A DNA stretch of 64,000 nt, from positions 2,176,001 to 2,240,000 of the forward strand of contig OZ244744.1 of NCBI GenBank assembly GCA_965219455.1, given 5' to 3'. The stretch comes from Candidatus Latescibacterota bacterium. GTDB taxonomy: Bacteria; Latescibacterota; UBA2968; GCA-2709665. A model generated the notes under the pieces. It was not told where the DNA came from. It ran no database searches and was given only the letters and a program-made list of their open reading frames with translations. Positions 44,342-63,122 of the stretch are shown here, one piece after another (the stretch's first letter is position 1; each line of letters opens with the position of its first letter). Made by a program: the position numbers and the translations under genes.

Positions 44342-44501
44342 ATGGATATCGGCATGTATCCCGACCTACCTGCATCCGAAACCCGGCGCCGGCCACAGGC
44401 GATCACAGGAAGGGGAAGCGGCTGTATCGGGAATCGAGTCCGCGAGTGTGTGATGGCTGAGTTTTAGGCGCCGCCGGATTTTTTCAAATCGAGGAATTTT
44501 C

Positions 44502-44530
44502 TTGACACTCGCGGTATGATTGTTTAATGT
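44502..44530 (+). promoter_or_regulatory. sigma70 promoter of the aromatic cluster leader
   Basis: TTGACA-N17-TAATGT. Confidence 0.7.
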
Positions 44531-44616
44531 TACACCGTCCCTAGTTGGTGCGGCTATTCGGCGAAAACCGGCGCCGGTAATAGGTCGACAGGGGCTTGGA
44601 ACAAGGGGGATCGAAC

Positions 44617-44724
44617 GTGACGGATCATGGACAGTACGGGTTTTCCTGGCGCGGGTATTTTTATCGCTCCTACCGGTGGTATTACCGGGAGGTCTCGGAA
44701 CGTCATGTCTGCCCACGCGAATAA
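44617..44724 (+). CDS. Aromatic-residue-rich attenuator leader peptide (35 aa)
   Basis: AAGGGGGA RBS, GTG start; MTDHGQYGFSWRGYFYRSYRWYYREVSERHVCPRE; 6 Tyr, 2 Phe, 2 Trp in codons 7-23. Confidence 0.8.
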   Translation: MTDHGQYGFSWRGYFYRSYRWYYREVSERHVCPRE

Positions 44725-44747
44725 GCCGTTGACAGAGTTGGAAACTT

Positions 44748-44778
44748 AGCCGTGGGCGTCTGCTCACGGTTTTTTTTT
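44748..44778 (+). terminator. Attenuator terminator
   Basis: AGCCGTGGGC-GTCT-GCTCACGGTT then a T-run; the 5' arm can instead pair with GCCCACG at 44711-44717. Confidence 0.85.
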
Positions 44779-44925
44779 ATCCCGTCGAAACAGAACGCCA
44801 GTGAGACGTTAAAGCGTCAATCCCGCCGGCTGGCTGCCTGTCTCCGGATGCAGGACAATCGCTCGTCCGGCACAAACGGACGCGGAAGTTCGATGCGCGA
44901 ATTCTGATATATATTTCGAAGTCAG

Positions 44926-46416
44926 GTGAAATTCGTGAGTACACCCGATTTGAAGGCGTTGAAAACGCTGGCTGAAGGCCGGGGGGTGGTTCCGATTTCC
45001 AGGGAAATCCTCGGGGATACGGAAACCCCGGTGTCCGCCTATCTGAAGCTGCGGCCCCGGAGTCCCTACAGCTTTCTTTTCGAGAGCGTGGAAGGGGGAG
45101 AGAAGATCGGGCGCTATTCTTTCCTGGGAGTGGAGCCCTTTCTTGCGTTTCGGTCGTGGAAATCCCGGATAGAGGTGGAGGATTTGAAGCAGGGCGACGT
45201 TCGGGTATATGAAGGGTCACCCATCGCCGAGCTCAGGCGGCTGCTGAGAAAATACCGTTCAGCGCAGTTGGAGGGACTGCCCAGGTTTACCGGAGGGGCT
45301 GTAGGTTACGTGGGCTACGATGCAATCCGGTTGGTTGAAAATATCCCCGACCGCACGCGCGACGACCACGGTTTGCCGGACATCGTGCTGCTTTTCTACG
45401 ATACGCTTCTTGGCTTCGACAACATTCGGCAGAAGATCCACCTGATTTCCAACGTGCATACCTCCGGAGATATTGAAGACAATTACCGGGAGGCGGAGGC
45501 GCGAATCGATGCGCTGGAAGGTGCCTTGCGCGCGCCGATTCCCACGACCTGCGTTCCGGAAAGAGCGCCCCGACGCCGGGCGTGCGACATCCGGTCGAAC
45601 ACGGAGCGGTCAGTCTATCTGGACAAGGTGCGGCGCTGCAAGGAATATATCGTGGCAGGCGATATTTTTCAGGTCGTACTTTCGCAGCGCTTCGAGACGG
45701 AGATAACCGTCGGGTCACTGGACATTTACCGTGCGCTTCGAACGGTGAATCCGTCTCCATATATGTTCCATCTGGATTTGAAGGACGTGCGGCTTGTCGG
45801 CGCGTCGCCGGAGCTGCTGGTTCGGGTCGAGAACGGCGTTGTGCAGGTGCGTCCGATTGCGGGCACACGGTGGAGAGGGGCTACGGAAGAGGAGGATTCC
45901 GCTCTCGAAGCGGATCTGCTGGCAGACGAAAAGGAACGTGCGGAGCACATTATGCTTCTGGACCTGGGCCGGAATGACGTGGGGCGGGTATCCCGTTACG
46001 ATACGGTACGCGTAACGGAACAGATGGCGATTGAGCGCTATTCTCATGTGATGCATATTGTGTCGAATGTTCAAGGGCGCCTCAAAGATGGCGTGGATGC
46101 TCTGGATGCGCTTTATGCCTGTTATCCGGCAGGCACGGTTTCCGGCGCGCCCAAGATCCGCGCCATGGAAATTATCGACGAACTGGAGCCGACCCGGCGT
46201 GGACCGTACTCGGGGGCCGTGGGCTATATTGATTTTTCGGGCAATATGGATACGTGCATTGCCATTCGTACGATGGTGTTGCTGGGCAAGAAAGCCTACG
46301 TTCAGGCCGGTGGGGGAATTGTGTTCGATTCCGTGCCGGAGAACGAGCACCAGGAAACGATGAATAAGGCGAAGGCGCTGTTCCAGGCCGTGGAATTGGC
46401 GGAAGGTACGGTGTAG
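44926..46416 (+). CDS. trpE: Anthranilate synthase component I
   Basis: [43 protein letters not shown]. Confidence 0.96.
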
Positions 46417-46466
46417 CATCTAGGGATATATCCTGCCACTCTTCAACGATCACGACCCACATTCTT

Positions 46467-47030
46467 ATGATTCTGGTAATCGACAATTACGATTCGTTCA
46501 CGTACAATCTGGTTCAGTATCTGGGCGAGTTGGGTGCGCGGATAGAGGTGTTTCGGAACGATCAGATCGGGCTGGACCAGATCGGCGCGTACCGACCTGA
46601 GAAGATGGTGATTTCGCCCGGGCCATGTACGCCGAACGAGGCGGGAATCTCCGTGGATCTGGTCCGGCGGTTTAGCGGAGAGATTCCGATGCTGGGCGTC
46701 TGTCTGGGGCATCAGTGCATCGGACAGGCCTTCGGCGGCACCGTCGTGAGGGCTCCGGCGATTCTACACGGGAAAGTGTCCGAGATTCATCACGACGGAC
46801 GTTCGATTTTCAGGGGGATGTCACAGCCCTTTATCGCCACGCGATACCATTCCCTGATTGTCGAACGGGACAGCCTGCCGGACTGCCTCGAGGTTACCGC
46901 GCAGACACACGACGGAACAATAATGGGGTTGCGGCACAGGGAGTATCCGGTTGAGGGCGTGCAGTTTCATCCGGAGTCAATTCTGACGGCTGAGGGCAAA
47001 GTGTTGTTGAAAAATTTCCTGGATGGTTGA
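46467..47030 (+). CDS. trpG: Anthranilate synthase component II
   Basis: [27 protein letters not shown]. Confidence 0.95.
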
Positions 47031-47085
47031 ATTCGGGGATCGAAAGGCTGGACCGGATCTCTGTTTACGGGTTGGGGAGACGGCT

Positions 47086-48105
47086 ATGGCGATACAGGAT
47101 GCGATTGCGAAGCTGATTGAGGGACAGGACCTGACACGTGACCAGATGATCGGGACGATGGACCAGATTATGTCGGGGGAGGCGACGGACGCGCAGATCG
47201 GTGGGTTTCTGGTGGCTCTGCGTGTCAAGGGGGAGACAGTTGAGGAGATCGCGGGCGCCGCGGAGGTGATGCGGGAGAAGGCGACCCGGGTCGTGACGCG
47301 ACACACCACGGTGGTCGATACATGCGGCACGGGGGGCGATGGGTCGGGAACGTTCAATATATCGACGGCGGCAGCGTTTGTCGTGGCCGGCGCTGGCCTG
47401 TGTGTGGCCAAACATGGTAACCGCGCGGCAACCAGCCTTTGTGGAAGTGCGGATGTCTTGAAGGAACTGGGGGTAAATATCGAAGCGGCGCCGGGGACGG
47501 TGGGGCAGTGTCTGGATGAGGTGGGCATCGGGTTCCTGTTTGCTCCTGCCCTGCATGGCGCCATGAAATATGCGATTGGACCCAGACGCGAGGTCGGCGT
47601 GCGTACGATTTTCAACGCGCTGGGCCCACTGACCAATCCGGCTGGCGCAACCCGACACCTGATCGGGGTATATAGTCGATCGCTGACTGACCGGCTGGCC
47701 GAGGTGTTGCAAACATTGCAATCGGAACGCGCGTTTGTGGTACACGGGCTGGACGGGCTGGATGAGATCACCACGACCGGACCAACGCAGGTGAGCGAGT
47801 TGAAGAATGGGACCGTGTCCACGTATGAGATCAGGCCGGAGGACCTGGGCATCGCCAGGGCGACAGCAGGTGATCTGGCAGGTGGCAACGCCGAGACCAA
47901 TGCGGCGATCCTGCGCAGGGTGTTGCATGGTGAGCCCGGTCCGCGGCTGGATATTGTCCTGCTGAATGCGGCAGCCGCCATCGTTGCGGGTGGCGCCGCG
48001 GATGACCTGTCGGCGGGATTGGAACTGGCCAGGGAGACCGTGGATTCGGGGCGGGCGATTGATAAGCTGGAAAAACTGAAACTCGTCGCGAACGAGGGCA
48101 GTTGA
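47086..48105 (+). CDS. trpD: Anthranilate phosphoribosyltransferase
   Basis: DTCGTGGDG..TFNIST, KHGNR, GLDE. Confidence 0.96.
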   Translation: MAIQDAIAKLIEGQDLTRDQMIGTMDQIMSGEATDAQIGGFLVALRVKGETVEEIAGAAEVMREKATRVVTRHTTVVDTCGTGGDGSGTFNISTAAAFVVAGAGLCVAKHGNRAATSLCGSADVLKELGVNIEAAPGTVGQCLDEVGIGFLFAPALHGAMKYAIGPRREVGVRTIFNALGPLTNPAGATRHLIGVYSRSLTDRLAEVLQTLQSERAFVVHGLDGLDEITTTGPTQVSELKNGTVSTYEIRPEDLGIARATAGDLAGGNAETNAAILRRVLHGEPGPRLDIVLLNAAAAIVAGGAADDLSAGLELARETVDSGRAIDKLEKLKLVANEGS

Positions 48106-48183
48106 CACCGGGCAATTTCGTCGCTCACGCCCCGAGCGTACCCCTTGAACGGGAAAATTGGAGGTCGCCCGGCCGAAACGAAG

Positions 48184-48984
48184 ATGGGGAGTATGGCTAC
48201 GATCCTCGATGAGATCATCGCATATAAGCGGCGCGTGGTGGCTGCGGCAAAACAACGGGTCTCCCCCGAGGTGTTACAGAAGCGGGCGGACCTGGTCCGT
48301 GAGCCGGGCTCGCTGATGGAAAGCCTGACTGTCGCGGAGGATATCGCGCTGATCGCGGAGATAAAAAAGGCGTCTCCGTCAAAAGGGGTGATCAGGGAAA
48401 ATTTCGATCCGGTGGAAATCGGTCGGGCTTACGAGGAAAACGGCGCGGCGGCAATTTCCGTGCTGACGGACGTGAAGTATTTTCAGGGCTCCGACGACAG
48501 TCTGACGGCCGTAAGCGAAGCCGTGGAATTGCCGGTACTCCGGAAGGATTTCGTGGTTGATCCTTATCAGATCCATGAAGCCAGGACAATCGGGGCGTCT
48601 GCGGTTCTGCTCATTGTTTCAGCGCTCTCGTTTCGTGAATTGGCAGGGATGCTCGCCGTTTGCAGGGAGTCGAAACTGGGCGCACTGGTAGAAGTGCATA
48701 CCAGAGAGGAATCGAGGATTGCGCTGGATGCTGGAGCGGATCTGCTGGGAGTGAATAACCGCGACTTGAAGACGTTTGAAACAGACCTGCGAACCACGTT
48801 CGATCTGATTGAACATCTACCGGCAGAACTGGTAATTGTAAGCGAGAGCGGCATTGAGACCCGGGACCATGTGGTCCGCTTAAGGGATGCGGGCGTGGAT
48901 GCGGTGCTGGTCGGGGAACATCTGATGCGTCATCCTGATGTCGGTCGAAAGCTTCGAGCGCTGTTGGGCAAGGAAGGCGGCTGA
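48184..48984 (+). CDS. trpC: Indole-3-glycerol phosphate synthase
   Basis: IAEIKKASPSKG, LRKDF, GVNNRDL, SESGI. Confidence 0.96.
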   Translation: MGSMATILDEIIAYKRRVVAAAKQRVSPEVLQKRADLVREPGSLMESLTVAEDIALIAEIKKASPSKGVIRENFDPVEIGRAYEENGAAAISVLTDVKYFQGSDDSLTAVSEAVELPVLRKDFVVDPYQIHEARTIGASAVLLIVSALSFRELAGMLAVCRESKLGALVEVHTREESRIALDAGADLLGVNNRDLKTFETDLRTTFDLIEHLPAELVIVSESGIETRDHVVRLRDAGVDAVLVGEHLMRHPDVGRKLRALLGKEGG

Positions 48985-48992
48985 TCCAAACC

Positions 48993-49625
48993 ATGGTTCG
49001 GGTGAAGATTTGCGGCATCACGAATCCGGAGGATGCGCTCTTTGCGGTTGCCCAGGGCGTTGACGCCCTGGGGTTCATCTTTTATGAACCCAGCCCGCGT
49101 TACGTGCATCCTGGCCACGTGAGCGAGATCGTGTCGGCGTTGCCGCCGTTTGTCACGCCAGTTGGCGTTTTCGTGAACAAGGTCAGGGAGGATATCCTGG
49201 CAATCGTGCGTTCGACGGGGCTTCGGGCGGTCCAATTGCACGGCGACGAGACGCCGGCTGATTGCCAGGGGTATCCTTTTCCGGTCATCCGTGCGTTGCG
49301 GGTCGGCGAGGGATTCAACCCTGCGTCGCTGAGCGTTTATCCCGTAAACACGTTTCTGCTGGATACGGCCAAGAAAGGATGGTACGGCGGCACGGGAGAA
49401 ACGTTCGACTGGCGGGTTGCAAGGGCGGCTTCGGCACACGGTCGGATCATTCTATCGGGGGGGATCGATCCGTCAAACGTGGCGGAGGCGGTCCGGACGG
49501 TGAATCCATATGCAGTCGACTGCGGCAGTGGCGTTGAGGCCGCGCCTGGCAGGAAAGACCACAACAGAATCGCCGAATTCTTCGGCGCGCTTCGCTCCGT
49601 AACAAGTGTTCTGCCCCGGAAATAG
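48993..49625 (+). CDS. trpF: Phosphoribosylanthranilate isomerase; last codons and stop come from a MITE end
   Basis: VKICGIT, VQLHGDE, GGTGETFDW, SGVE..PGRKD. Confidence 0.95.
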   Translation: MVRVKICGITNPEDALFAVAQGVDALGFIFYEPSPRYVHPGHVSEIVSALPPFVTPVGVFVNKVREDILAIVRSTGLRAVQLHGDETPADCQGYPFPVIRALRVGEGFNPASLSVYPVNTFLLDTAKKGWYGGTGETFDWRVARAASAHGRIILSGGIDPSNVAEAVRTVNPYAVDCGSGVEAAPGRKDHNRIAEFFGALRSVTSVLPRK

Positions 49626-49645
49626 ATTGCCGAAATTCGGCCGAC
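49604..49645 (+). mobile_element. MITE family A, solo left end
   Basis: AGTGTTCTGCCCCGGAAATAGATTGCCGAAATTCGGCCGAC. Confidence 0.75.
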
Positions 49646-49927
49646 CAGAAGCAGCAAGAACAGCTATCAGCGATCAGCCGTCAGCTTGAAGCAAAAACCC
49701 AATCAGTTGACGTCAGCGCCGTGAAAAGCCAGCACCCGGAACGGGCGCAATGAGGGCACTTCTACAGGCTCGGTGTCAACATTTCCACAAACTTGCTTCG
49801 GCAAGCCGTTTCGACAGGCTCGACGTAGAAAACGCACCCGGCGAACGCAAAGCGGATAGATTGCCGAAATCTGCGACAATCAGCGTAATTTTGCTTCATC
49901 AACCGAATCGATCTGGAGCGAGACATT

Positions 49928-51190
49928 GTGGACATCTTGAAAGATCTGGAGTTCCGGGGGTATGTTTTTCAGGTAACGGACGCCAGCGGACTCACGGCGC
50001 GGCTCGCCCGGGGGCCGATAACGCTCTATTCGGGGTTCGACCCCACGGCAGCCAGCTTGCACGTCGGCAACCTGATACCCATTCTGGGACTGCGGCGGTT
50101 CCAGTTGGCCGGGCATCATGCAATCGGCCTTATCGGAGGAGGTACCGGTTTGATTGGCGATCCGAGCGGAAGTAAGGAAGAACGCCGATTGAACCCGCCC
50201 GAGGTGATCGCGGCATATACCGAGAAGCTGACAGAGCAACTGGCTAAATTTCTGGATTTCGATACAAGAACCAATCCCGCCCAGGTGGTCAGCAATATGG
50301 GCTGGCTCTCCGAGCTCAAGGCAATTGACTTCCTGAGGGACGCGGGCAAGCATTTCCCCATGGGTTATATGCTGGCGAAAGAGTCCGTGGCTTCCCGTCT
50401 GGAATCCGGAATATCCTTCACCGAGTTCAGCTATATGGTCATTCAGGCATATGATTTCATGGAGTTGTTTCAAACGTGCGGATGCGAGTTGCAAATTGGC
50501 GGGAGCGATCAATGGGGCAATATTACAGCGGGAATCGAGTTGATCCGACGTCGTCTGGGCGGACAGGCACACGGTCTGACGTTTCCACTGCTGCAGAAAG
50601 CCGACGGTTCCAAGTTCGGCAAGACGGCCTCCGGTACTGTCTGGCTGGACGCGAGAAAGACAACGCCCTATCAGTTCTACCAGCACTGGATCAATACGGA
50701 TGACCGGGACGTCGTGAGCTTTCTGAAGCTGTTTACGTTTCTCTCGGAGGATGAGATCCGAAATCTGGAAATGGAGGTGTCACAACGCCCCGAGAAGCGC
50801 GAGGCACAGCGGGTTCTGGCCGACGAGGTAACCACATTCGTACATGACAGTACCGCAACAGACCGGGCGCGACGGATTTCCGAGGCATTGTTTTACGGGG
50901 ATCTGCGAGATCTGAGTGCACAAGAGATAGAGGAAGGGTTCAGCGACGTGCCATCTCATGCGCTCAATGGCGCGACTGAAGTGGGTTTGATTGGCTTGTT
51001 GGTCAATGTCCGCATTTCATCTTCCATGCGCCAGGCGCGCGAAGATATCAAGTCCGGCGCGATACATATCAATGGCCGGCGTTGCACGGATATGGGCCGG
51101 ATCCTTGAACCTTCCGAGAGACTCGCCGGAAAATACCTGGTGGTTCGCCGGGGCAAACGCCGCTACTTTCTGGTGCGCTGGAACAATTGA
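49928..51190 (+). CDS. tyrS: Tyrosine--tRNA ligase
   Basis: GFDPTA.SLHVGN, QIGGSDQWGN, KFGKT, S4-like tail. Confidence 0.97.
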   Translation: MDILKDLEFRGYVFQVTDASGLTARLARGPITLYSGFDPTAASLHVGNLIPILGLRRFQLAGHHAIGLIGGGTGLIGDPSGSKEERRLNPPEVIAAYTEKLTEQLAKFLDFDTRTNPAQVVSNMGWLSELKAIDFLRDAGKHFPMGYMLAKESVASRLESGISFTEFSYMVIQAYDFMELFQTCGCELQIGGSDQWGNITAGIELIRRRLGGQAHGLTFPLLQKADGSKFGKTASGTVWLDARKTTPYQFYQHWINTDDRDVVSFLKLFTFLSEDEIRNLEMEVSQRPEKREAQRVLADEVTTFVHDSTATDRARRISEALFYGDLRDLSAQEIEEGFSDVPSHALNGATEVGLIGLLVNVRISSSMRQAREDIKSGAIHINGRRCTDMGRILEPSERLAGKYLVVRRGKRRYFLVRWNN

Positions 51191-51286
51191 CGGGCAGGCG
51201 CGGGGCGGCTTGTACGTATCGGAATGCAAATCAGGATATGAATATTCGGAACTCAGCAGCAAAAACAAAAGGAGAGGATTCTTTAC

Positions 51287-52264
51287 ATGAAAGCACCATG
51301 GATTACCTATCGGCCGGAACTCAAGGTACTTGATTGTACGATTCGAGACGGCGGATTGATGAATGACCATCATTTTACCGATGATTTCGTGAAGGCAGCT
51401 TACGAAACCTGCGTTGAAGCAGGGGTCGATTATATGGAAATCGGGTACCGAAACTCCAAGGAGATGTTCCCAAAAGGACAATTCGGACCCTTTCGACACA
51501 GTGACGAAGAAGATATCCGCAAGATTGCGGGCGATCACGACCCTGAAACGACCGGCCTGAAGCTCGCCATTATGGCCGATGCGGGCAAGAGCGATTGGGC
51601 GGAAGACATCCTGCCGGCCAGCGAGAGCGTGGTCAGCATGGTGCGCGTAGCCTGCTATGTCGAGCAGATCCCTGAAACCGTCGAAATGCTTTGCGACGCC
51701 CATGAGAAAGGTTATGAAACCAGCTGTAACATTATGGCCATTTCGACCGTGCAGGAGGTCGAGATCGACCAGGCGCTGGAAGTACTGATAAAAACCCCGG
51801 TTGGAACAATATGTGTTGTAGATAGTTTTGGCGCATTGTACCGCGAGCAGGTGGATATGCTCATTCGGAAGTATATGGAAGCCGTCAGCGGAACGGGAAA
51901 AGAAGTGGGCATTCACGCGCACAACAACCAGCAACTGGCGTTCGCCAATACCCTGGAAGCGCTTATTCTGGGCGCCAACCGGGTTGATGCCACGGTGGAC
52001 GGACTTGGCCGCGGCGCAGGAAATTGCCCGCTGGAATTGCTGCTCGGTTTCTTGCGCAATCCCAAATTCAAGATTCGACCTGTCTACAAGCTATTGGAAG
52101 ACCATTTTGTCAAATTGCGCGGTGAATTGACGTGGGGGGCCCTCATTCCGTACAACATCACGGGTCAGCACAACCAGCATCCCCGCTCGGCAATGGCGCT
52201 CCTGGACGGGGACGACCGCGATCGGTATCTGACATTCTACGATCAGGTGATGAGGGATATCTAG
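51287..52264 (+). CDS. DRE-TIM (HMGL-like) aldolase catalytic-domain protein
   Basis: LDCTIRDGG, VDSFG, HAHNN, GLGRGAGN. Confidence 0.85.
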   Translation: MKAPWITYRPELKVLDCTIRDGGLMNDHHFTDDFVKAAYETCVEAGVDYMEIGYRNSKEMFPKGQFGPFRHSDEEDIRKIAGDHDPETTGLKLAIMADAGKSDWAEDILPASESVVSMVRVACYVEQIPETVEMLCDAHEKGYETSCNIMAISTVQEVEIDQALEVLIKTPVGTICVVDSFGALYREQVDMLIRKYMEAVSGTGKEVGIHAHNNQQLAFANTLEALILGANRVDATVDGLGRGAGNCPLELLLGFLRNPKFKIRPVYKLLEDHFVKLRGELTWGALIPYNITGQHNQHPRSAMALLDGDDRDRYLTFYDQVMRDI

Positions 52265-52306
52265 TGTTCTGTTCCGGAAATAGATTGCCGTAGTTCGGCC
52301 GCCGAG
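52262..52306 (+). mobile_element. MITE family A, solo left end on the aldolase stop codon
   Basis: TAG-TGTTCTGTTCCGGAAATAGATTGCCGTAGTTCGGCCG. Confidence 0.75.
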
Positions 52307-52373
52307 GCGCGGGCCCCGAACAACGACGGCGCCTGAGTCCGCCCGGCCACCACACCTTAACGGGATGGAAATT

Positions 52374-53585
52374 ATGGCACTTCCCAAAGCAGATGAATCC
52401 ACCGGCACAACACCCGACTCCGGGGGGCATTTCGGACCCTACGGTGGGCGCTACGTGCCGGAAACGCTGATGCCCTTGTTGGAGGACTTGGAGGCAGCCT
52501 ACCGCGATGCGAAGGACCGTCCGGATTTCAAGGAAGAACTGGACCGGTATCTCAGGGAATTTGTGGGAAGGCCGACGTCACTTTATTTTGCGCAGCGGCT
52601 GACCGCCGAACTGGGTGGAGCCAGAATCTATTTGAAGCGGGAGGACCTCGCGCACACCGGCGCGCACAAGATAAACAACACGATGGGCCAGATTCTCCTT
52701 GCCAAGCGAATGGGCAAAACGCGGATCATCGCGGAAACGGGCGCAGGTCAACACGGTGTGGCGACAGCAACCGTGGCGGCGATGTTCGGAATGGACTGCG
52801 AGATTTACATGGGCACCGAAGACATGGACCGTCAGGCGTTGAATGTGTTTCGAATGCGGCTCCTGGGCGCGAATGTAACGGGGGTGGATTCGGGCAGCAG
52901 GACTCTGAAGGATGCGATCAACGAAGCCATCCGGGATTGGGTGACGAATGTGGAAGATACGTTTTATATATTCGGATCCGTCCTGGGACCGCATCCGTAT
53001 CCGATGATCGTGCGCGATTTTCAGCGGGTGATCGGGGTGGAAACGCGCGAACAGATCCTGCAAGCCGAAGGCCGCTTGCCGGACTGTCTGATCGCATGCG
53101 TCGGCGGCGGCAGCAATTCCATCGGGCTGTTTCACGCCTTTTTGAATGACACGGACGTGCGGATGGTTGGTGTCGAAGCGGGAGGGCATGGCATTGCCTC
53201 CGGCGACCATGCGGCGCGATTTCAGGGCGGGGATCTGGGCGTACTGCACGGGGCAAGGATTTACCTCCTGCAGGACGAGGACGGGCAGATCGCGCTGACC
53301 CATTCGGTGTCCGCGGGCCTGGATTATTCGGGTGTGGGGCCCGAGCACTGTCATCTGCGGGATGCGGGTCGGATCGAGTACGTCTATGCCACCGACGACG
53401 AAGCCCTGAAGGCTTTCCAGCAGTTGAGTCGCACTGAGGGTATAATTCCCGCACTGGAAAGCGCACACGCGATCGCGCACGTGTCCAGAGCGGCGCCCGA
53501 ACTGGGCAAGGATGCCGTAATCGTGGCGAATCTTTCCGGCCGGGGCGATAAAGACGTGCAGCAGGCGGCAAAATACCTGCATTAG
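52374..53585 (+). CDS. trpB: Tryptophan synthase beta
   Basis: [40 protein letters not shown]. Confidence 0.98.
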
Positions 53586-53638
53586 GCAGTATTGCACCGT
53601 TCGTTTTCAGGTCGGAATCGAAGAATGGGGTCGATCGG

Positions 53639-54451
53639 ATGACAAGAATCGGGAAACGGTTCGAGGCGTTGAAAGAAGCGCGCAGGACCGGATTTGTGGC
53701 CTACATCACCGCGGGAGATCCGGACCTGGCAATCACCCGCAAGCTGGTGCCGGAACTGGAACGGCGCGGGGTGGACATTCTCGAGTTGGGCGTGCCGTTC
53801 TCCGATCCACTGGCGGATGGACCGGAGATCCAGCGGGCATCGCAGCGCGCCCTGCGACATCGGGTGTCAATCGGTGACGTGCTGGATCTGGTGGCAGACC
53901 TGCGGCGGGAGACGGAGATACCGATTGTGCTGTTTACGTATTTCAATCCGATGCATCGTTTTGGTCTGAAACGACTTGTCGACCGGGCGGCCGAAGCGGG
54001 GGTGGACGGCATTCTGGCGCTGGATCTTCCGCCCGAGGAGGCGGCGGAGTACAAGTGTCTGATGTCGCAACAGGGACTGGATACGATTTTTTTGATTGCG
54101 CCAACGAGCCGTGAGGATCGTATTCAACGGATTGCGGCGCATTCCAGCGGGTTTGTGTATTACGTGTCACGCACGGGCGTAACGGGGGAACGGAAAAGCC
54201 TGGAGGAGACACTTGGCGCCAAGGTGGCGACCATCCGTCGCTACACGTCGCAACCGGTTGCGGTGGGATTCGGTATTTCGACGCCCGAACATACCAGGGA
54301 GGTTGCAGTTTATGCGGATGCAGTCGTCGTTGGCAGCGCGATCGTGCGGCGAATTGCGGAGCGGCAGGGCGACCCGGATCTCGTTTCACACATCGGAGTA
54401 TTTGTGGAAGAACTCGTGCAACCGTTGAAGGGAGCACCCGATGGATCTTGA
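53639..54451 (+). CDS. trpA: Tryptophan synthase alpha
   Basis: ELGVPFSDPLADGP, DLPPEE, VGFGIS. Confidence 0.97.
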   Translation: MTRIGKRFEALKEARRTGFVAYITAGDPDLAITRKLVPELERRGVDILELGVPFSDPLADGPEIQRASQRALRHRVSIGDVLDLVADLRRETEIPIVLFTYFNPMHRFGLKRLVDRAAEAGVDGILALDLPPEEAAEYKCLMSQQGLDTIFLIAPTSREDRIQRIAAHSSGFVYYVSRTGVTGERKSLEETLGAKVATIRRYTSQPVAVGFGISTPEHTREVAVYADAVVVGSAIVRRIAERQGDPDLVSHIGVFVEELVQPLKGAPDGS

Positions 54452-54773
54452 AGACTGGCGAAAGGAAATCGACGTCCTGAATCAACAACTGCTGGAGCTT
54501 CTCAATCGACGAGCCGAATGTGCACTTGAGATTGGCAGGATTAAACAGGCAATCGAGCAACCGATTTATGCGCCGGAACGGGAGACGTCGATCCTGAACC
54601 GAATCCGTAAACTGAACACGGGGCCCCTGACCGACGAAGCGGTGCATCGGATATTTCAGCAGATAATCGATGAGTCCAGGCGCCTGGAACAGGAGCATGG
54701 CGACCGGGAAACGGGGGCACAAAACCCCTCTGAATCCGTTCGTGAAACCGGCCGAACGACTAAACCGGATTGA
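54441..54773 (+). CDS. Monofunctional chorismate mutase (AroQ type)
   Basis: WRKEID...LLNRR...IGRIK...PERE...IIDESR. Confidence 0.88.
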   Translation: MDLEDWRKEIDVLNQQLLELLNRRAECALEIGRIKQAIEQPIYAPERETSILNRIRKLNTGPLTDEAVHRIFQQIIDESRRLEQEHGDRETGAQNPSESVRETGRTTKPD

Positions 54774-54802
54774 CGGTCGCCAACCCCCGGAGCTGAAGGC
54801 AA

Positions 54803-55831
54803 ATGGCGTTCAGAAAGATCCTGAAGATACCCACCCCGGAAGCCGTACTGGAGAAGATGTCGCTTCCGAAGAAGCTGAAGGCTGTAAAGGATGAACGCGA
54901 CGCGGAAATCAGGGATATTTTCGCGCGGAGGAGCGATAAGTTTCTGCTGGTGATCGGCCCCTGTTCGGCGCACAACGAAGATGCCGTATGTGAATACGTG
55001 TCCCGGCTGGCGAAACTGCAGGAGGCCGTCCGGGAAAAACTGGTTCTGGTGCCGCGCATTTATACCAACAAACCCCGAACAACCGGCGAGGGGTACAAGG
55101 GGATGGGGCATCAGCCGGACCCGCGGAAGGCACCGGATATTTCCGAGGGGATCTATGCGGTTCGTCAGATGCATATCCGGGCGGTCCGGGAGTCCCATCT
55201 GACGGCCGCCGACGAAATGCTGTACCCGGGCAATCTGCCGTATGTCGAGGATCTGCTGAGTTATATAGCCGTGGGCGCACGGTCGGTGGAGAATCAACAG
55301 CACCGCTTGACCTGTAGCGGCGTCGGCGTGCCGGTCGGAATGAAGAACCCGACGGGAGGAGATCTTTCGGTCATGCTGAACGCGATTCACGCCTCACAGA
55401 TTCCACACGTCTTCATTTATAACGGCTGGGAGGTGAGTACCGATGGCAATCCCCTGGCACACGCCGTGCTTCGGGGCGCCGTGGATGTGACCGGGCGCAG
55501 TATTCCGAACTATCACTTTGAAGACCTCATACACGTTGCGGAACTCTATCGCCAGCGGCCGCTTGCCAATGCCGCAATCGTTGTGGATACGAATCACAAT
55601 AATTCCGGCAAACAGTTCAGCGAACAACCCAGGATCGGGTTGGAGGTGATACGCAGCCGGCAGAGTTCGGGATTCTTGAACGATATGATCCGTGGGTTGA
55701 TGGTGGAAAGTTTTCTGGTTGAGGGCACACAGAACGTTAATGACGGCGTGTACGGCAAATCCATTACCGATCCGTGCCTGGGGTGGAAGGATTCCGAGGT
55801 GTTTGTGAAGGAACTGGCGGAAAAAATATGA
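54803..55831 (+). CDS. DAHP synthase, type I-alpha
   Basis: VIGPCS, KPRTT, GARS, GMKN, HAVLRG, KSITDPC. Confidence 0.93.
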   Translation: MAFRKILKIPTPEAVLEKMSLPKKLKAVKDERDAEIRDIFARRSDKFLLVIGPCSAHNEDAVCEYVSRLAKLQEAVREKLVLVPRIYTNKPRTTGEGYKGMGHQPDPRKAPDISEGIYAVRQMHIRAVRESHLTAADEMLYPGNLPYVEDLLSYIAVGARSVENQQHRLTCSGVGVPVGMKNPTGGDLSVMLNAIHASQIPHVFIYNGWEVSTDGNPLAHAVLRGAVDVTGRSIPNYHFEDLIHVAELYRQRPLANAAIVVDTNHNNSGKQFSEQPRIGLEVIRSRQSSGFLNDMIRGLMVESFLVEGTQNVNDGVYGKSITDPCLGWKDSEVFVKELAEKI

Positions 55832-55909
55832 GAGCGGCCGGGCTCCGGATTCAGGAGTGAATCGGAACGTTTTCCTGACGCTCTTGCCTGTTCTTCCGAG
55901 GATGAAGGT

Positions 55910-57022
55910 ATGGCGAATGATCCTCCGTTTGCGCGTGAGACGATTGCTATTGTGGGTGTTGGGTTGATCGGCGGATCTCTTGGCGTGGCACTCAAGGGTC
56001 TGGGCATCGGGCGAAGCATCGTTGGCGTCAGCAGGCAGGAGACACTGGATGCAGCCGGCGAATTGAATGTAATTGACGCGGGCTATCGCTATGAAGAGCT
56101 GGCAGCGGGAATTGCCGAAGCGGCGCTGGTTTTCCTGTGTACTCCCATTGTACGTATTCTGGACCTGCTGCCGCGGGTGCTGGGGGCGGCGCGGAAGGGT
56201 GCGGTCGTGACCGATGTGGGCAGCACCAAGCACGCGATTGTTTCCGCGGCGACGGCGCATCAACGGGATGGCGTGTGCTTTGTGGGAGGGCATCCGATGG
56301 CCGGGTCCGAACATCGCGGGGTAAGCGCGGCGGATCCTTTCCTGTTTCAGAACGCCATTTACGTATTGACGCCGTCGCCGGACACGCCCGATTTCGTGGT
56401 CGAAAAGCTCGCGCGCCTCGTGAGGGCGCTCGGGGCGAGACCCATGAGGATGACGCCTCAGGCACACGACAGGGCGGCGGCGGCGGTGAGCCATTTGCCG
56501 CAGATGATGGCCACAAGCCTGGTGTCCATGATCGGACGGATGACCGAGGCCGAAGGGTTGCCGATACGGATGGCGGCGGGTGGGTTTCGGGATCTGACAC
56601 GCATTGCATCCAGCCCGTATGAAATGTGGCGGGATATCTGCCATACAAACGGGGCCTCGATCCGTGAGATGATCGATCTCTATATTGAGTCGCTGGCAGC
56701 GATTCGCGGGGAAGTGGACCATGACGGTCTGGAGCAGGCATTTGTCTATGCGAATCGGGTACGGGGACAGATCCCGAAGGACTCCAAGGGGTTTTTGCAT
56801 CCCCTATACGAAATCCTCCTGGTGGCGGAAGACAGACCGGGCGTGATTGCCGACGTCGCTCAGACCCTGGCCGGAGAGAACATCAATATTAACGACATCG
56901 AGGTGTTGAATGTACGGGAGGGGGAAGGGGGCACCATCCGGATGGGGTTCGATTCACGTCCATGCGCGGAAGAGGCCGTAGGTGTGTTGGGGAAGGCGGG
57001 ATACAGCGTCAGGCTGAGATAG
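55910..57022 (+). CDS. tyrA: Prephenate/arogenate dehydrogenase with C-terminal ACT domain
   Basis: GVGLIGGS, DVGSTK, GGHPMAG, HD..AAAVSHLP, RDLTRIA, DRPGVIA. Confidence 0.92.
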   Translation: MANDPPFARETIAIVGVGLIGGSLGVALKGLGIGRSIVGVSRQETLDAAGELNVIDAGYRYEELAAGIAEAALVFLCTPIVRILDLLPRVLGAARKGAVVTDVGSTKHAIVSAATAHQRDGVCFVGGHPMAGSEHRGVSAADPFLFQNAIYVLTPSPDTPDFVVEKLARLVRALGARPMRMTPQAHDRAAAAVSHLPQMMATSLVSMIGRMTEAEGLPIRMAAGGFRDLTRIASSPYEMWRDICHTNGASIREMIDLYIESLAAIRGEVDHDGLEQAFVYANRVRGQIPKDSKGFLHPLYEILLVAEDRPGVIADVAQTLAGENININDIEVLNVREGEGGTIRMGFDSRPCAEEAVGVLGKAGYSVRLR

Positions 57023-57101
57023 ACGGAAGGATCCCGAACGGGAAACGGTTGAACGAGAGAGATTGCTGCCCGTCCTTTAGTGACTCCATTTTGAAGAAGG
57101 C

Positions 57102-58415
57102 GTGGTTTTGGAATTCGCGGGTTCGGTGATTTCCCGGGGCACGATCAGGCCCTCGCCAGGGCTTGTGGGGACATGCGACCTCCCGGGCGATGCCAACATG
57201 TCGATAATGGCCCTGGTGCTATCGTCCACGGCCGATGGAATCTCCCGGATTCACAGGTGTTCGCGACGACGCGACGTCGGGCGAGCCGTAGAATTGCTGT
57301 CGAAACTCGGGATTTCGGTCGGGTGGGACGGTGAGACCGCGACGGTGACCGGCGGCCGCTTCAGGGCGCCGGACGACGTGCTGCACGTGGATGGGTCCCC
57401 GGTTCTGTTTTCCTGTCTGGCGGGATTGCTGTCGAATGCGCCCTTTGTGACCAGACTCTCCGGAGTTCGGGCGGATGCCGACGTCGACAGGGTTTTCGGG
57501 GCGCTCCGCGCATTGGGCGCACAACTGGACATTCCGGCTGAGGATCGGACATCGGCAGGTGTGGGAGGGGGTAAGTTAACGCCCGGTTCCTACCGCGTCG
57601 GACTTCCGGATATGTTGGTGAAGTGTGTAATGCTTATGGCCGGGTTGGGTGTGGATGGTCCGGTTGAACTGTTGCAGGACACCCGTGGGGATGACGACCT
57701 GGAAGTGTTGCTGCAAGCAGCAGGATGCGGGCTGAAGAAGAGGCGCATGAAGGGCGCCGGCGGTCATCGATTGTTGATGGAAGGACCCGTACGGCTCCAT
57801 GGCGTTACCCATGAGTTGCCGGGTAGTTCGGACGCGGGGCTGTTTCTTGCTCTCGCTGCGGCAATGTTGAAACGGTCTGATGTGACGGTAACCCATTTCG
57901 GAATGGATTCGAGAAGCCGCAGGATCGTAGATATATTGCGGCGAATGAACGTATCTATGGATGTGGAGCAATACTGGACGAATTCCGGTTTTCCCGTACG
58001 ACGACTTCGGATCAGGGGGTCCGAATTGCGTGGTATAAAAATCTCGGGTGCGAATGCGAGACGCTTCAGGGACGTGCTCCCGCTCCTGGCAGTCGCGGGC
58101 GCGGTATCCCGGGGTGAAACGATTTTACGGGATGCCGAGGCGTTGAGGGACGGCCCGGTGGACTGTATTTCGGTAATGGTGGAAAACCTCAGGAAGATGC
58201 AGATTCAAGTTGGGGAGATGCCGGATGGGCTGGTTGTGAAGGGCGGGCAACTGCAGGGCGCCGAACTGGATGCTGCCGGCGACGCCCGTGTGTCAATGGC
58301 ACTCACGCTGGCAACGCTGGCGAGCGAAGGGGAAACCCTTGTAATGAACCCTGGGCCCGTGGATCAGATGCATCATGGGATCATGGAAAGATTGGCTACG
58401 GTTTTGGAGACGTAA
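57102..58415 (+). CDS. EPSP synthase (AroA) homolog with active-site motifs degenerated
   Basis: Collinear with class II AroA over ~430 aa, but most substrate-binding residues are substituted (see findings). Confidence 0.8.
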   Translation: MVLEFAGSVISRGTIRPSPGLVGTCDLPGDANMSIMALVLSSTADGISRIHRCSRRRDVGRAVELLSKLGISVGWDGETATVTGGRFRAPDDVLHVDGSPVLFSCLAGLLSNAPFVTRLSGVRADADVDRVFGALRALGAQLDIPAEDRTSAGVGGGKLTPGSYRVGLPDMLVKCVMLMAGLGVDGPVELLQDTRGDDDLEVLLQAAGCGLKKRRMKGAGGHRLLMEGPVRLHGVTHELPGSSDAGLFLALAAAMLKRSDVTVTHFGMDSRSRRIVDILRRMNVSMDVEQYWTNSGFPVRRLRIRGSELRGIKISGANARRFRDVLPLLAVAGAVSRGETILRDAEALRDGPVDCISVMVENLRKMQIQVGEMPDGLVVKGGQLQGAELDAAGDARVSMALTLATLASEGETLVMNPGPVDQMHHGIMERLATVLET

Positions 58416-58507
58416 GTCGTGTACGTAATTCGGTTGCCCGACGTGTATTGTGGCGGCATGGGCCGCTCAAAACAACGTGGGTCAATCATCGGTACGAGGA
58501 GAGTCTT

Positions 58508-58648
58508 ATGAGACTGGTTGGCAGGTTGTTCTTTCTGGCGTTACTCGTGTTCCTGGGAGGCGTGGTTTTCATTCGGTACACCTACAACTGTTCCTGGAAA
58601 GAGAGTTTTGCAATTGCCGATCAGTTTGTGTCTGACCTGACCGGTTGA
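58508..58648 (+). CDS. 46-aa single-TM small protein
   Basis: GAGGAG RBS; MRLVGRLFFLALLVFLGGVVFIRYTYNCSWKES... Confidence 0.65.
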   Translation: MRLVGRLFFLALLVFLGGVVFIRYTYNCSWKESFAIADQFVSDLTG

Positions 58649-58738
58649 GCAACGCGATGCTGGTCGACGTGCGGGGGAACTTCAACCGGCCAGACGCGAA
58701 AACCGGGTTTAGGAACTGATAGGTCAGGGGAGTCTGTT

Positions 58739-59605
58739 TTGGGTATTGTGTCAACCACGCAGTTGCTGGGGGTGATAGGCGATCCGATTGCCCATTCGTT
58801 GTCGCCGGACATGCACAATGCGGCCATAAGCGTTCTTGAAGCAGACTACTGTTACGTTGCCTTTCACGTATTGCCGAATGGGGTTGAATCGGCGCTTCAG
58901 GGGATGCGCGCCTTGCAGATCCGGGGTTTGAACGTAACCCTTCCGCACAAGACTGCAGTGATGGCACACCTGGACCGGATTTCCGAAGAAGCACTGGCCG
59001 TGGGCGCGGTGAATACGATTTCTTTCAATGACGGCGAACTGGTCGGGCACAATACAGACGTGTACGGGTTGGCCACCGCGCTGGAGCGGACGGCCGGCCT
59101 CGCCGTGTTGCCGGAGCATTGCGTGATTCTCGGCGCGGGCGGCGTGGCGCGGGCGGCTGTTTATGCGCTGGCTACGCAAAATGAGGTGCGGCGGGTGAGC
59201 ATTCTGAATCGAACTGTAGGCCGGGCGGAAGCGCTTGCGCGTAATATGGAACGGATCACAGGCAAGACAATAGACGCGGGCGATCTGACGACAGACACCC
59301 AAATGAGGCGGTTCGCGGATGCCGGCCTCGTCGTGAATGGTACTTCGCTGGGGATGCACCCGAACGTAGAGCGGACGCCGCTTGCGGATACAGACACGAT
59401 ACACTCACAACTGGTGCTCTACGATACGGTTTTCAACCCGCTGGATACGCTGCTGATGCGGCAGTTTCGATCCGCGGGCGCGCTGGCTTTTGGAGGACTG
59501 GATATGCTTGTACACCAGGGTGCGCGTTCGTTTGCCATCTGGACGGGAGTCGAGCCGCCCGTCGACGTCATGAAGCAGGCGGTAATCGACCGGTTTCGGG
59601 CGTAG
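58739..59605 (+). CDS. aroE: Shikimate dehydrogenase
   Basis: HSLSP.MH, NVTLPHK, GAVNT, NTD, GAGG, GLDMLVHQ. Confidence 0.95.
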   Translation: MGIVSTTQLLGVIGDPIAHSLSPDMHNAAISVLEADYCYVAFHVLPNGVESALQGMRALQIRGLNVTLPHKTAVMAHLDRISEEALAVGAVNTISFNDGELVGHNTDVYGLATALERTAGLAVLPEHCVILGAGGVARAAVYALATQNEVRRVSILNRTVGRAEALARNMERITGKTIDAGDLTTDTQMRRFADAGLVVNGTSLGMHPNVERTPLADTDTIHSQLVLYDTVFNPLDTLLMRQFRSAGALAFGGLDMLVHQGARSFAIWTGVEPPVDVMKQAVIDRFRA

Positions 59606-59607
59606 CT

Positions 59608-60327
59608 GTGGTGAGGTCCGACCTACAGGAACGCCGGGCAAAACGGACTTTTGTGCGTCAGATGTTCGACGGCATAGCCGGTACGTACGATCTGTTGAAC
59701 CACCTGCTGAGCGCCGGCGTGGACATTGTCTGGCGGCGATGGACAGTAGACGCACTGGAATTGCAAGCCGGAGAGTGGATCCTGGACCTTGCAACGGGAA
59801 CGGGCGATTTGGGCCTCGAAGCGGCTGCGCGTGATTCGGGCGTGCGGGTTGTGGGCGCGGACCTGTCCCTACCGATGCTTCGGCTAGCAAACAAAAAACG
59901 GGATAGGGGATCCGGCCGACTGCTTCTCCTATGTGCAGACGCGGAGCGGCTGCCGTTTCCCGACGTGCAGTTTCATGCCGTAACGATTGGTTTCGGAGTA
60001 CGGAATTTTTCGGACTTGAACAATGGCCTTCAGGAGATACATCGGGTTTTACGCGCCGGAGGCCGGTTGGCAATTCTGGAGTTTTCCAGGCCCAGGGCGT
60101 TTCTATTACGCAGGATCTACTTTTTTTATTTCAAATTTATCCTGCCCGGCATCGGCCGGCTTGTTTCCCGGAATCCTCTGGCGTATCGGTATCTTTATGA
60201 GTCTGTAATGGGTTTTCCTGAGGGGGAAGCATTCCGAAGGCGTCTGACGCAGGCCGGTTTTGTCGAGGCGGTGGAACGCCGGTTGACCTTTGGGATTGCG
60301 ACCATCTATTTGGCTTCAAAACCGTAA
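59608..60327 (+). CDS. ubiE: UbiE/MenG quinone C-methyltransferase
   Basis: YDLLNHLLSAG, DLATGTGD, FGVRN, LEFS, YRYLYES. Confidence 0.9.
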   Translation: MVRSDLQERRAKRTFVRQMFDGIAGTYDLLNHLLSAGVDIVWRRWTVDALELQAGEWILDLATGTGDLGLEAAARDSGVRVVGADLSLPMLRLANKKRDRGSGRLLLLCADAERLPFPDVQFHAVTIGFGVRNFSDLNNGLQEIHRVLRAGGRLAILEFSRPRAFLLRRIYFFYFKFILPGIGRLVSRNPLAYRYLYESVMGFPEGEAFRRRLTQAGFVEAVERRLTFGIATIYLASKP

Positions 60328-60371
60328 AAGCGCTTTGCTTATTGGTCAGCGTGTTGGGCTTGAGAAAGTAA

Positions 60372-60485
60372 CGAGATGGCATTTTCAAAGCGCGAGGATT
60401 ACAAGTTTTACGCATTTCAAATGTTGAAATTCGCACGCATTCAGATGGCGTTCTCAAATCAATCAGAGCATATATAAGGCAGCGT
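60372..60485 (+). pseudogene. C-terminal remnant of a DUF559-type endonuclease
   Basis: RDGIFKARGLQVLRISNVEIRTHSDGVLKSI after an in-frame TAA; lower GC; no start. Confidence 0.6.
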
Positions 60486-60505
60486 TCGCTCAACGCTTGG
60501 TTCAA

Positions 60506-60545
60506 CTCCCCCTTTCCTTGTAGGAGAGGGGGCTGAGGGGAGAGG
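60506..60545 (+). repeat. REP-like palindrome of the CCCCTCTCC...GGAGAGGGG type
   Basis: CTCCCCCTTTCCTTGTAGGAGAGGGGGCTGAGGGGAGAGG. Confidence 0.65.
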
Positions 60546-60554
60546 TCCTCCTTT

Positions 60555-62258: not shown

Positions 62259-62527
62259 TTCACGGCCCGCTGTATCACCCTTCCGAAATGACGTTTAACG
62301 CCGCCGGTATCCAGGCGTCGTCGTTATTGACGGGACACTGGAGACATATTTCTTCACAGGTGGTAGTGAATGAAAACCGGACCGGCAACGCTTAATTCCA
62401 TTAACCCGCTACTGGAAACGCGACACCCGAGCCCTCTTGCTGCATCCGGAATGAACTCCGCGCTGGTCGTCGCAGTTCAGAGCACCATTACAGATCGCCA
62501 GGCGCACGCAGGGCGGGGGCGCGCATC

Positions 62528-63073
62528 GTGAACCGGTTGCAGGGCAGGCATATTTTCCTGACCGGGTTCATGGCGACCGGCAAGAGCAAGATCGGGCCAA
62601 TTCTGGCGCAGCGCCTGGGTCGGGTATTTGTAGATACGGATGAGATGATCGTTGAGACGGCCGGTAAGTCGATACCCCGGATCTTCGCGGAAGACGGAGA
62701 GGCCGCATTCCGTCGTATCGAGCGCGGTTGCGTGGTGCGGGCGGGCGGGATGAGGGATGCCGTGATTGCTCTGGGTGGCGGCGCGGTCACACACGAGGAG
62801 AACTGGGATACGATTCGCGCATCCGGTGTGTGCCTGTGTCTGCGGGCATCTGCTGAGACCATCTTCATGCGCCTGCGCAGGGTGGAGGGTGAACGGCCGC
62901 TGATGGCCGGATTAAACGATGAAGATCGGATGGCAAAGATCCGGTCGATGCAGGCCGCCCGGGCGCCGTTTTACGAACGTGCGGATGTATTCGTGGAGTC
63001 GGCGGAGTGCCGTACGCTGGAAGAGACCGTTGAACTGGCAGTGTTGGCTTTGAAAGGCCTTGATTCGCAATAA
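62528..63073 (+). CDS. aroK: Shikimate kinase
   Basis: GFMATGKS, DTD, GEAAFR, LGGG, RPL. Confidence 0.95.
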   Translation: MNRLQGRHIFLTGFMATGKSKIGPILAQRLGRVFVDTDEMIVETAGKSIPRIFAEDGEAAFRRIERGCVVRAGGMRDAVIALGGGAVTHEENWDTIRASGVCLCLRASAETIFMRLRRVEGERPLMAGLNDEDRMAKIRSMQAARAPFYERADVFVESAECRTLEETVELAVLALKGLDSQ

Positions 63074-63122
63074 GGGCATTGGAAGGCCACTGCGTATGGA
63101 ATCTCAAGTCGTACAGAGCGGT

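Follow-up and report, generated by a model that had tools for sequence, protein, structure and literature searches.

We analysed a window of 64,000 nucleotides (nt) from a Candidatus Latescibacterota bacterium (contig OZ244744.1, positions 2,176,001 to 2,240,000 of the forward strand; all coordinates below are those of the window), in which a short leader open reading frame (ORF) precedes trpE at the head of a cluster of aromatic amino acid genes. The leader and its signals lie on the + strand between the end of an upstream SDR gene (44341) and the start of trpE (44926). A promoter-like site, TTGACA at 44502-44507 and TAATGT at 44525-44530 with a 17-nt spacer, follows the SDR gene after 160 nt; the promoter scan made no call at this site, and its -10 hexamer has only three of six matches. 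The Shine-Dalgarno (SD) box AGGGGGA (44604-44610) stands 6 nt ahead of the GTG that opens a 35-codon leader ORF (44617-44724, TAA stop at 44722-44724). Codons 7-23 of this ORF (44635-44685) form an aromatic tract of ten codons, with Tyr at codons 7, 14, 16, 19, 22, and 23, Phe at 9 and 15, and Trp at 11 and 21, against two and three aromatic codons in the other frames. Region 1, CGCGGGTA (44650-44657, codons Arg12-Gly13-Tyr14), nearly repeats the terminator 5' arm and can pair with region 2. It is followed in the tract by a hairpin, P1, predicted by folding (CUCCUACCGGUG-GUAU-UACCGGGAGG, 44667-44692, -11.4 kcal/mol), the stem of which consists of the Arg CGG codons flanking Trp-Tyr-Tyr, with the Trp and Tyr codons in the loop. 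Region 2, UGCCCACG (44710-44717), the candidate 5' strand of an antiterminator, ends 4 nt ahead of the stop codon and includes GCCCACG at 44711-44717. The terminator scan found an intrinsic terminator at 44748-44778 (stem 44748-44771, loop GTCT, nine T to 44778; 10 pairs, six of them G-C), and its 5' arm contains CGTGGGC at 44751-44757. The promoter, the SD box, the GTG ORF with ten aromatic codons in codons 7-23, GCCCACG, and the terminator had been placed at these same positions by an earlier sequence-only reading of the window.

To that reading, a comparison of the regions upstream of trpE in related genomes was the natural check. With TrpE as the anchor, the gene was found in 41 of 41 genomes (this one and 40 relatives, spanning two families and nine genera), and the 600 nt upstream of trpE were read in 30 loci, one of which was truncated by a contig end, leaving 29 usable. 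The expected aromatic-rich short ORF was present throughout: all 29 usable relatives have an ORF rich in Tyr, Phe, and Trp, 30-35 codons long, that ends 60-295 nt ahead of trpE, these 29 leaders being kin and not independent samples. The best 17-residue window holds at least seven aromatic residues in 28 of the 29 and at least nine in 16 of the 29; among 78 trpE upstream regions from other phyla that served as a control, the corresponding counts were 3/78 and 0/78. Across the 5.84-Mb genome, only three stop-to-stop tails reach ten aromatic residues in 17, and a T-run of six or more within 90 nt downstream was found behind the trpE leader only. The core pattern was found once in the genome, with no other aromatic-rich ORF followed by a terminator there. 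Upstream of the leader, TTGACA-N16-18-TAnnnT is present in 28 of the 29 relatives. The 5' untranslated stretch from the -10 box to the SD box (44531-44603 here) measures 79-86 nt in this genus versus 26-47 nt in other genera; it is thus about 40 nt longer in this genus, where it is poorly conserved and carries indels. Two minus-strand ORFs that overlie the site (44366-44767 and 44777-45220) were rejected as genes, having no Pfam family and a frame that one-base indels in the genus alignment would break.

We built a covariance model from the 3' two-thirds of the element and ran it against 132 genomes of the class. It matched 21 of 21 and 30 of 31 genomes in the two families, which are mostly training data or their kin, and the single miss in the latter family is an 82%-complete genome with a truncated trpE contig. 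In a third family that took no part in model building, all three genomes (3/3) were matched, and their leaders lie upstream of trpE, are rich in Phe, Tyr, and Trp, and end in ...DCPSR or ...DCPLH. Matches in a fourth family came from 4 of 76 genomes, and both of those that were fetched were plain terminators; second matches in the relatives were likewise mostly plain terminators behind unrelated genes.

The composition of the leaders supports the view that they are translated and that Tyr, Phe, and Trp codons are mixed within them. Each of the 29 has an ATG, GTG, or TTG start with a GGAG, GGAGGA, or AGGA box ahead of it. The gene content of this genome, with a TonB-dependent receptor, FtsZ, and few multihaem proteins, likewise suggests a diderm bacterium that uses SD boxes. 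In the 29 leaders together, the ORF frame holds 266 aromatic codons and the other two frames 81 and 86; for seven genus representatives the numbers are 66 versus 18 and 19. The peptides themselves differ among genera, as in WRGYFYRSYRWYYRE, FFWRSFRYYRYYRQ, and YFWYFWRRFDGRYYYYRR. Tyr, Phe, and Trp each occur in 29 of 29 leaders, with Tyr usually the commonest; together the three account for 6.7% of codons in the cluster's own genes. The sequence-only reading had also pointed to recurring Arg codons in the tract and to argS in the cluster, a link that we found weak. Arg makes up 12-27% of the leaders, compared with 8.2% in the cluster genes, but its codons are barely frame-specific (31 in frame versus 23 and 17 out of frame in the seven representatives), and several of them form the hairpin stem.

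At the RNA level, all 29 leaders have the terminator (in L029 a different stem was picked automatically, but the alignment and the folds contain the true one), with 98.3% of cells paired over the 29 sequences. Its three outer pairs are changed on both sides (11 cells) and the inner GUGGGC/GCUCAC is invariant, so that the covarying stems looked for by the sequence-only reading do exist here, as three compensatory pairs. The antiterminator, UGCCCACG:CGUGGGC(A/G), is predicted once the terminator 3' arm is omitted from the fold; all 29 leaders form its five core pairs, of which three do not vary at all, and the complete eight-pair helix is 87% paired. In region 2, TGCCCA is invariant in 22 of the 29. 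The other seven leaders, from six species of one genus, have TGTCCT and read UGUCCUGCG; the ACG of region 2 is lost and the pairing is shifted, GGUUUGUCC being able to pair with GGGCAAAC(U) through a terminator loop, AAAC, that is unique to this genus. By sequence, the shifted pairing is a lineage-specific compensation.

The leader stop codon precedes the terminator core by 25-31 nt in all 29 leaders and comes 0-7 nt after region 2, in agreement with the earlier claim that the antiterminator strand stands just ahead of the leader stop. The ORF frame over GCCCAC is shifted in two genera (...CMPTL versus ...VCPRE), which indicates that the RNA element and the stop position are conserved there and the peptide end is not. 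Region 1 has the consensus CG(U/C)GGGUA; its form CGUGGGUA pairs with UGCCCACG in the folds of several relatives (L003, L010, L020, and L021), and by our reading of the alignment, regions 1 and 2 pair without a mismatch in 8 of the 14 species in the genus. Hairpins like P1 are found around Tyr-Tyr codons in the folds of other genera, and P1 may act as a pause site. As isolated helices, the terminator (-15.6 kcal/mol) and the antiterminator (-16.7 kcal/mol) are nearly equal. In the nascent RNA folded to 44760, region 2 pairs with the terminator 5' arm (the 2:3 pair) with a probability of 0.6-0.74, which falls to zero with a ribosome at the stop.

These observations lead us to propose, with a probability of roughly 70%, that the element is a classical Yanofsky-type ribosome-mediated transcription attenuator that reads several aromatic aminoacyl-tRNAs. 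Its parts, their conservation, and their geometry can be read from the aligned sequences; we infer the dependence on translation and on a shortage of cognate charged tRNA, and it is the codon counts alone that suggest which amino acids would be sensed. Transcription would start at the conserved promoter and a ribosome would translate the 35-codon leader. When tRNA-Tyr, tRNA-Phe, and tRNA-Trp are well charged, the ribosome would reach the stop at 44722 and cover UGCCCACG (44710-44717), the terminator at 44748-44778 would form, and transcription would stop ahead of trpE. Shortage of any one of the three tRNAs would stall the ribosome in codons 7-23, on or between regions 1 and 2, and leave UGCCCACG free to pair with the emerging terminator 5' arm, CGUGGGC(G/A); no terminator would then form and transcription would read through into trpE and the later genes. 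In a leader that is left untranslated, region 1 could hold region 2.

Several results weigh against this proposal. The antiterminator shows no covariation, both strands being nearly invariant in the 29 leaders, so that the search for covarying stems succeeded for the terminator only. Region 1 has one C-A mismatch in this genome, its pairing is not evident in several other genera, and the translation-free state in this genome gives no clear prediction of termination. Folding energies are no better than those of shuffled sequences (z = -0.26 and +0.24), and in single sequences the 2:3 complementarity is not significant, 113 of 1000 shuffles being as good here and 8-247 of 1000 in six other genera; with such weak single-sequence statistics, the case rests on comparison. 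Folding with the ribosome footprint masked, the second check put forward in the sequence-only reading, gave a divided answer: a ribosome at the stop excludes the 2:3 pair in the nascent RNA, but the full transcript at equilibrium keeps its terminator under any mask. The switch must therefore be kinetic, as is the attenuator switch of E. coli, and equilibrium folds with a masked footprint are uninformative for a kinetic switch. Within the genus, synonymous positions are conserved too in the alignment, which makes selection on codons and selection on RNA inseparable at that level. Finally, the presence of a codon does not prove sensing, since in Corynebacterium glutamicum the aroR leader has a Tyr codon and Tyr supply is without effect, as far as the consulted part of a review describes it (PMC11802643).

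The fourth family was informative about the origin of the arrangement. TrpE was found there in 13 of 31 genomes (E up to 1e-60), and upstream of all 10 full-length trpE genes stand a leader and a terminator that has a complementary region 2 of its own. These leaders are centred on Trp (RYWWRF, RWWWRFW, and similar), with adjacent Trp codons in 9 of the 10. In the other 18 of the 31 genomes, several of them closed, TrpE was not found at the same threshold; these could be tryptophan auxotrophs or have a very different anthranilate synthase. As judged from sequence, there is one attenuator design throughout the class, the codon content of which shifts from Trp-Trp-centred to Tyr-dominated.

Such a history also lends something to the view that the element is an ordinary tryptophan attenuator of the trpL kind, in which Trp codons alone matter and the Tyr and Phe codons are RNA structure or neutral filler. 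The Trp codons in all ten fourth-family leaders, adjacent in nine, suggest a Trp-sensing ancestor; trpE is the first gene of the cluster, every one of the 29 leaders has at least one Trp codon, and the Tyr codon of aroR is reported in the consulted part of the review to be without effect (PMC11802643). Against this, many leaders (among them L003, L005-L007, L009, L010, L016, L017, and L029) have one Trp codon yet 5-11 Tyr or Phe codons in frame, Leu or Arg replaces Trp within the genus while the Tyr-Tyr pair persists, and the cluster also makes the precursors of Tyr and Phe and contains tyrS. We regard a purely Trp-directed attenuator as unlikely, although it deserves to be kept in mind.

A switch operated by an RNA-binding protein, a tRNA, or a small ligand at the hairpin (44667-44692) or at UGCCCACG, with the ORF incidental, would fit the nucleotide conservation in the genus, which reaches third codon positions, and the conserved hairpin within the tract; GGUGGUAUUACCGG also bears a superficial likeness to the T-box core. 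However, no Rfam match at gathering score was obtained within the window, and neither T-box (RF00230), Trp_leader (RF00513), nor any other curated leader matched at E up to 10 in 44350-44950. The hairpin loop varies among relatives (UGGU, UUGU, AGGU, and UAUU); on this variation and the lack of an Rfam match we rejected the T-box that GGUGGUAUUACCGG had led us to suspect. TRAP (PF02081) had no match in the closed genome, with the control search positive in B. subtilis, and the Trp-repressor (TrpR) family had none in the closed genome either. A switch of this type would leave the frame-specific aromatic codons, the start with its SD box, and the fixed stop position unexplained, and we think it quite improbable. 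The sole T-box-like match in the genome lies outside the window on the minus strand (G000:C1:555683-555981; 72.4 bits, E 2e-15) and is below the gathering score of 93.

An arrest peptide similar to TnaC, in which the nascent chain would sense a free aromatic amino acid and stall near the stop, is brought to mind by the Cys-Pro that is conserved two to three codons ahead of the stop in most leaders, a Pro near the stop being a feature of TnaC. Here Cys-Pro derives from the RNA element UGCCCA, the two frame-shifted genera have another peptide end, and the remaining peptide is not conserved between families; moreover, a ribosome arrested at the stop would sit on region 2 and promote termination, the opposite of what a biosynthetic operon needs. 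We consider an arrest peptide very improbable. Chance, that is, an unregulated terminator of the upstream transcript next to an accidental ORF, could draw on the weak single-sequence statistics but is hardly credible, with the ORF, promoter, stop position, and terminator kept across three families, the design kept across four, and the SDR gene ending 160 nt before the promoter-like site.

The multivalent attenuator that we prefer has relatives among known systems. Most known cases of leader-peptide attenuation come from Proteobacteria and Actinobacteria, and a leader usually has a single cognate amino acid. The sequence-only reading went further and held that leaders of this geometry sense a single amino acid, which is too narrow: ilvL (Leu/Val/Ile) and thrL (Thr/Ile) of Enterobacteria are multivalent attenuators. 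As in these, one leader would integrate several amino acids of a shared pathway, the amino acids being different. The attenuator of the E. coli trpL-trpEDCBA operon (RF00513), the mechanism of which is classical, shares with this locus a short leader before trpE, a terminator with its T-run, a ribosome at the stop that would cover the antiterminator strand, and regulatory codons in or next to the segment that competes for this strand. It differs in that RF00513 has no match here, the leader has 14 codons there and 35 here, and in place of adjacent Trp-Trp there are six Tyr, two Phe, and two Trp codons spread over 17 codons; the operon here adds common-pathway genes, Tyr-branch genes, and two tRNA-ligase genes. 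In B. subtilis an aromatic supraoperon is controlled by TRAP, and in Firmicutes tyrS and trp genes are under T-box control. The likeness to these systems lies in an aromatic supra-operon and in a choice between terminator and antiterminator that reads tRNA charging or Trp; with neither TRAP nor T-box here, the sensor appears to be the translating ribosome.

Mixed aromatic codons have been described before in the aroR attenuator, which was reportedly studied by Neshat et al. in 2014, as told in a review. The consulted part of the review summarises the mechanism of leader-peptide trp attenuation and describes the C. glutamicum aroR leader before aroF, with Phe-Tyr-Phe, where ribosome stalling controls the DAHP synthase operon and the response is to Phe and not to Tyr (PMC11802643); this leader, too, does not fit the earlier single-amino-acid statement. 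Compared by description, aroR has three aromatic codons, no Trp, a position before aroF and not trpE, and a host from another phylum. Attenuators with cognate codons before aminoacyl-tRNA ligase genes are described for E. coli pheM-pheST and Streptomyces trpS and leuS in the consulted part of another source (PMC1262725). The presence of tyrS in the cluster behind a Tyr-rich leader is similar, but tyrS and argS lie here within a biosynthetic cluster, 5 and 16 kb downstream, and their co-transcription with the leader is putative. In the full-text literature that was searched we found no Tyr/Phe/Trp leader before trpE and no aromatic multivalent leader of such breadth; subscription literature may hold related predictions. 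The mechanism is a known one and the view of how attenuation works is unchanged; what is new is the form of the leader, with codons for all three aromatic amino acids. It is also distinctive in heading a cluster of about 18 genes that unites genes of the common pathway and of the Trp and Tyr branches with two tRNA-ligase genes, and in being kept across a whole class with a changing codon make-up. The natural series from Trp-Trp-centred to Tyr-dominated leaders would bear on how leader codon content sets the input logic of an operon, and, as a point of annotation, the leader is missed by gene callers and by Rfam.

The genes behind the leader are co-oriented on the + strand (44926-63998, assigned with NCBIfam and Pfam) and the cluster runs off the window. 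It comprises trpE, trpG, trpD, trpC, trpF, tyrS, an HMGL-like gene, trpB, and trpA and continues with the genes for chorismate mutase (54441-54773) and DAHP synthase, then tyrA, aroA, aroE, menG/ubiE, argS, aroK, and aroB. The order trpEGDC...chorismate mutase-tyrA-aroA-aroE-(menG)-argS-aroK-aroB recurred in all 15 loci compared, which represent four families, and this upholds the earlier placement of the leader at the head of an aromatic cluster. The further claim that this one site controls about 19 kb was overstated. It is favoured by the common orientation and by the lack of a second strong + strand terminator in 44400-64000, but gaps of 227-351 nt in this genome could hold promoters; among them are 302 nt between trpF and tyrS, 323 nt between aroA and aroE, 227 nt between menG and argS, and 269 nt between argS and aroK. 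The same junctions often span only 13-60 nt in relatives, which favours co-transcription there. RNA-library contigs of close relatives (about 95-96% alike) cover 44458-44744, 44482-44738, and 44589-44738 and cannot show ends, strand, or level. The leader contigs were deeper in word depth than the trpE contigs; for two of the four runs, RNA as the source is a guess, and we conclude nothing from this difference.

The content of the cluster varies between families. Behind trpF, a tyrS-like gene is found in all nine loci of the two families with Tyr-rich leaders (two of these at about 30% identity), in one of two loci of the third family, and in none of four loci of the fourth, Trp-Trp family. Among the 15 loci, DAHP synthase was seen in the cluster in the first two families only. 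Between aroE or menG and aroK, argS (60555-62258 here) was present in 13 of the 15 loci, across the four families, the other two loci not being reached. It is tempting to speculate that the codon repertoire of the leader is tuned to the content of the operon, tRNA ligases included. The leader would perhaps sense four inputs (Tyr, Phe, Trp, and Arg) and control aromatic biosynthesis jointly with tyrS and argS, and perhaps it was re-tuned from a Trp-Trp ancestor to the Tyr-dominated form where tyrS and DAHP synthase joined the cluster. Hints in this direction are a Trp-Arg pair kept across families with the third base of the Arg codon varying, the presence of argS inside most of the clusters, and the distribution of tyrS between Tyr-rich and Trp-Trp loci. 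The weak frame preference of the Arg codons speaks against it, as does the comparison of only two or three independent lineages, and we consider such tuning a rather unlikely extension of the attenuator proposed here.

Two smaller features of the cluster were observed. The HMGL-like aldolase gene (PF00682, 51287-52264) stands between tyrS and trpB; the loci with this insertion belong to this genus and to the second family's large genus (87-94% identity), and it was not seen in the remaining loci. An unannotated 46-codon ORF (58508-58648), hydrophobic in its N-terminal half, lies in the 323-nt aroA-aroE gap and may be a small membrane protein or a product of chance.

Similar leaders may exist beyond the class and beyond trpE. 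Possible cousins outside the class were seen in three of the 78 control loci, with FWYW in a Latescibacterota metagenome-assembled genome (MAG; L031), YWYW in an Acidobacteriota MAG (L074), and WWPWW in a Poribacteria MAG (L110). All three ORFs have terminators behind them and trpE downstream, that of L110 standing ahead of a his-like gene before trpE. In two species of the second family's large genus (L142 and L144), a second hydrophobic, Phe-rich ORF of about 41 codons, ending in ...RGDVCP(C/G)VSRS, precedes a methyltransferase-like gene, together with a terminator and a GUGUGCCCA element, in a 3' architecture like that of the trpE leader.

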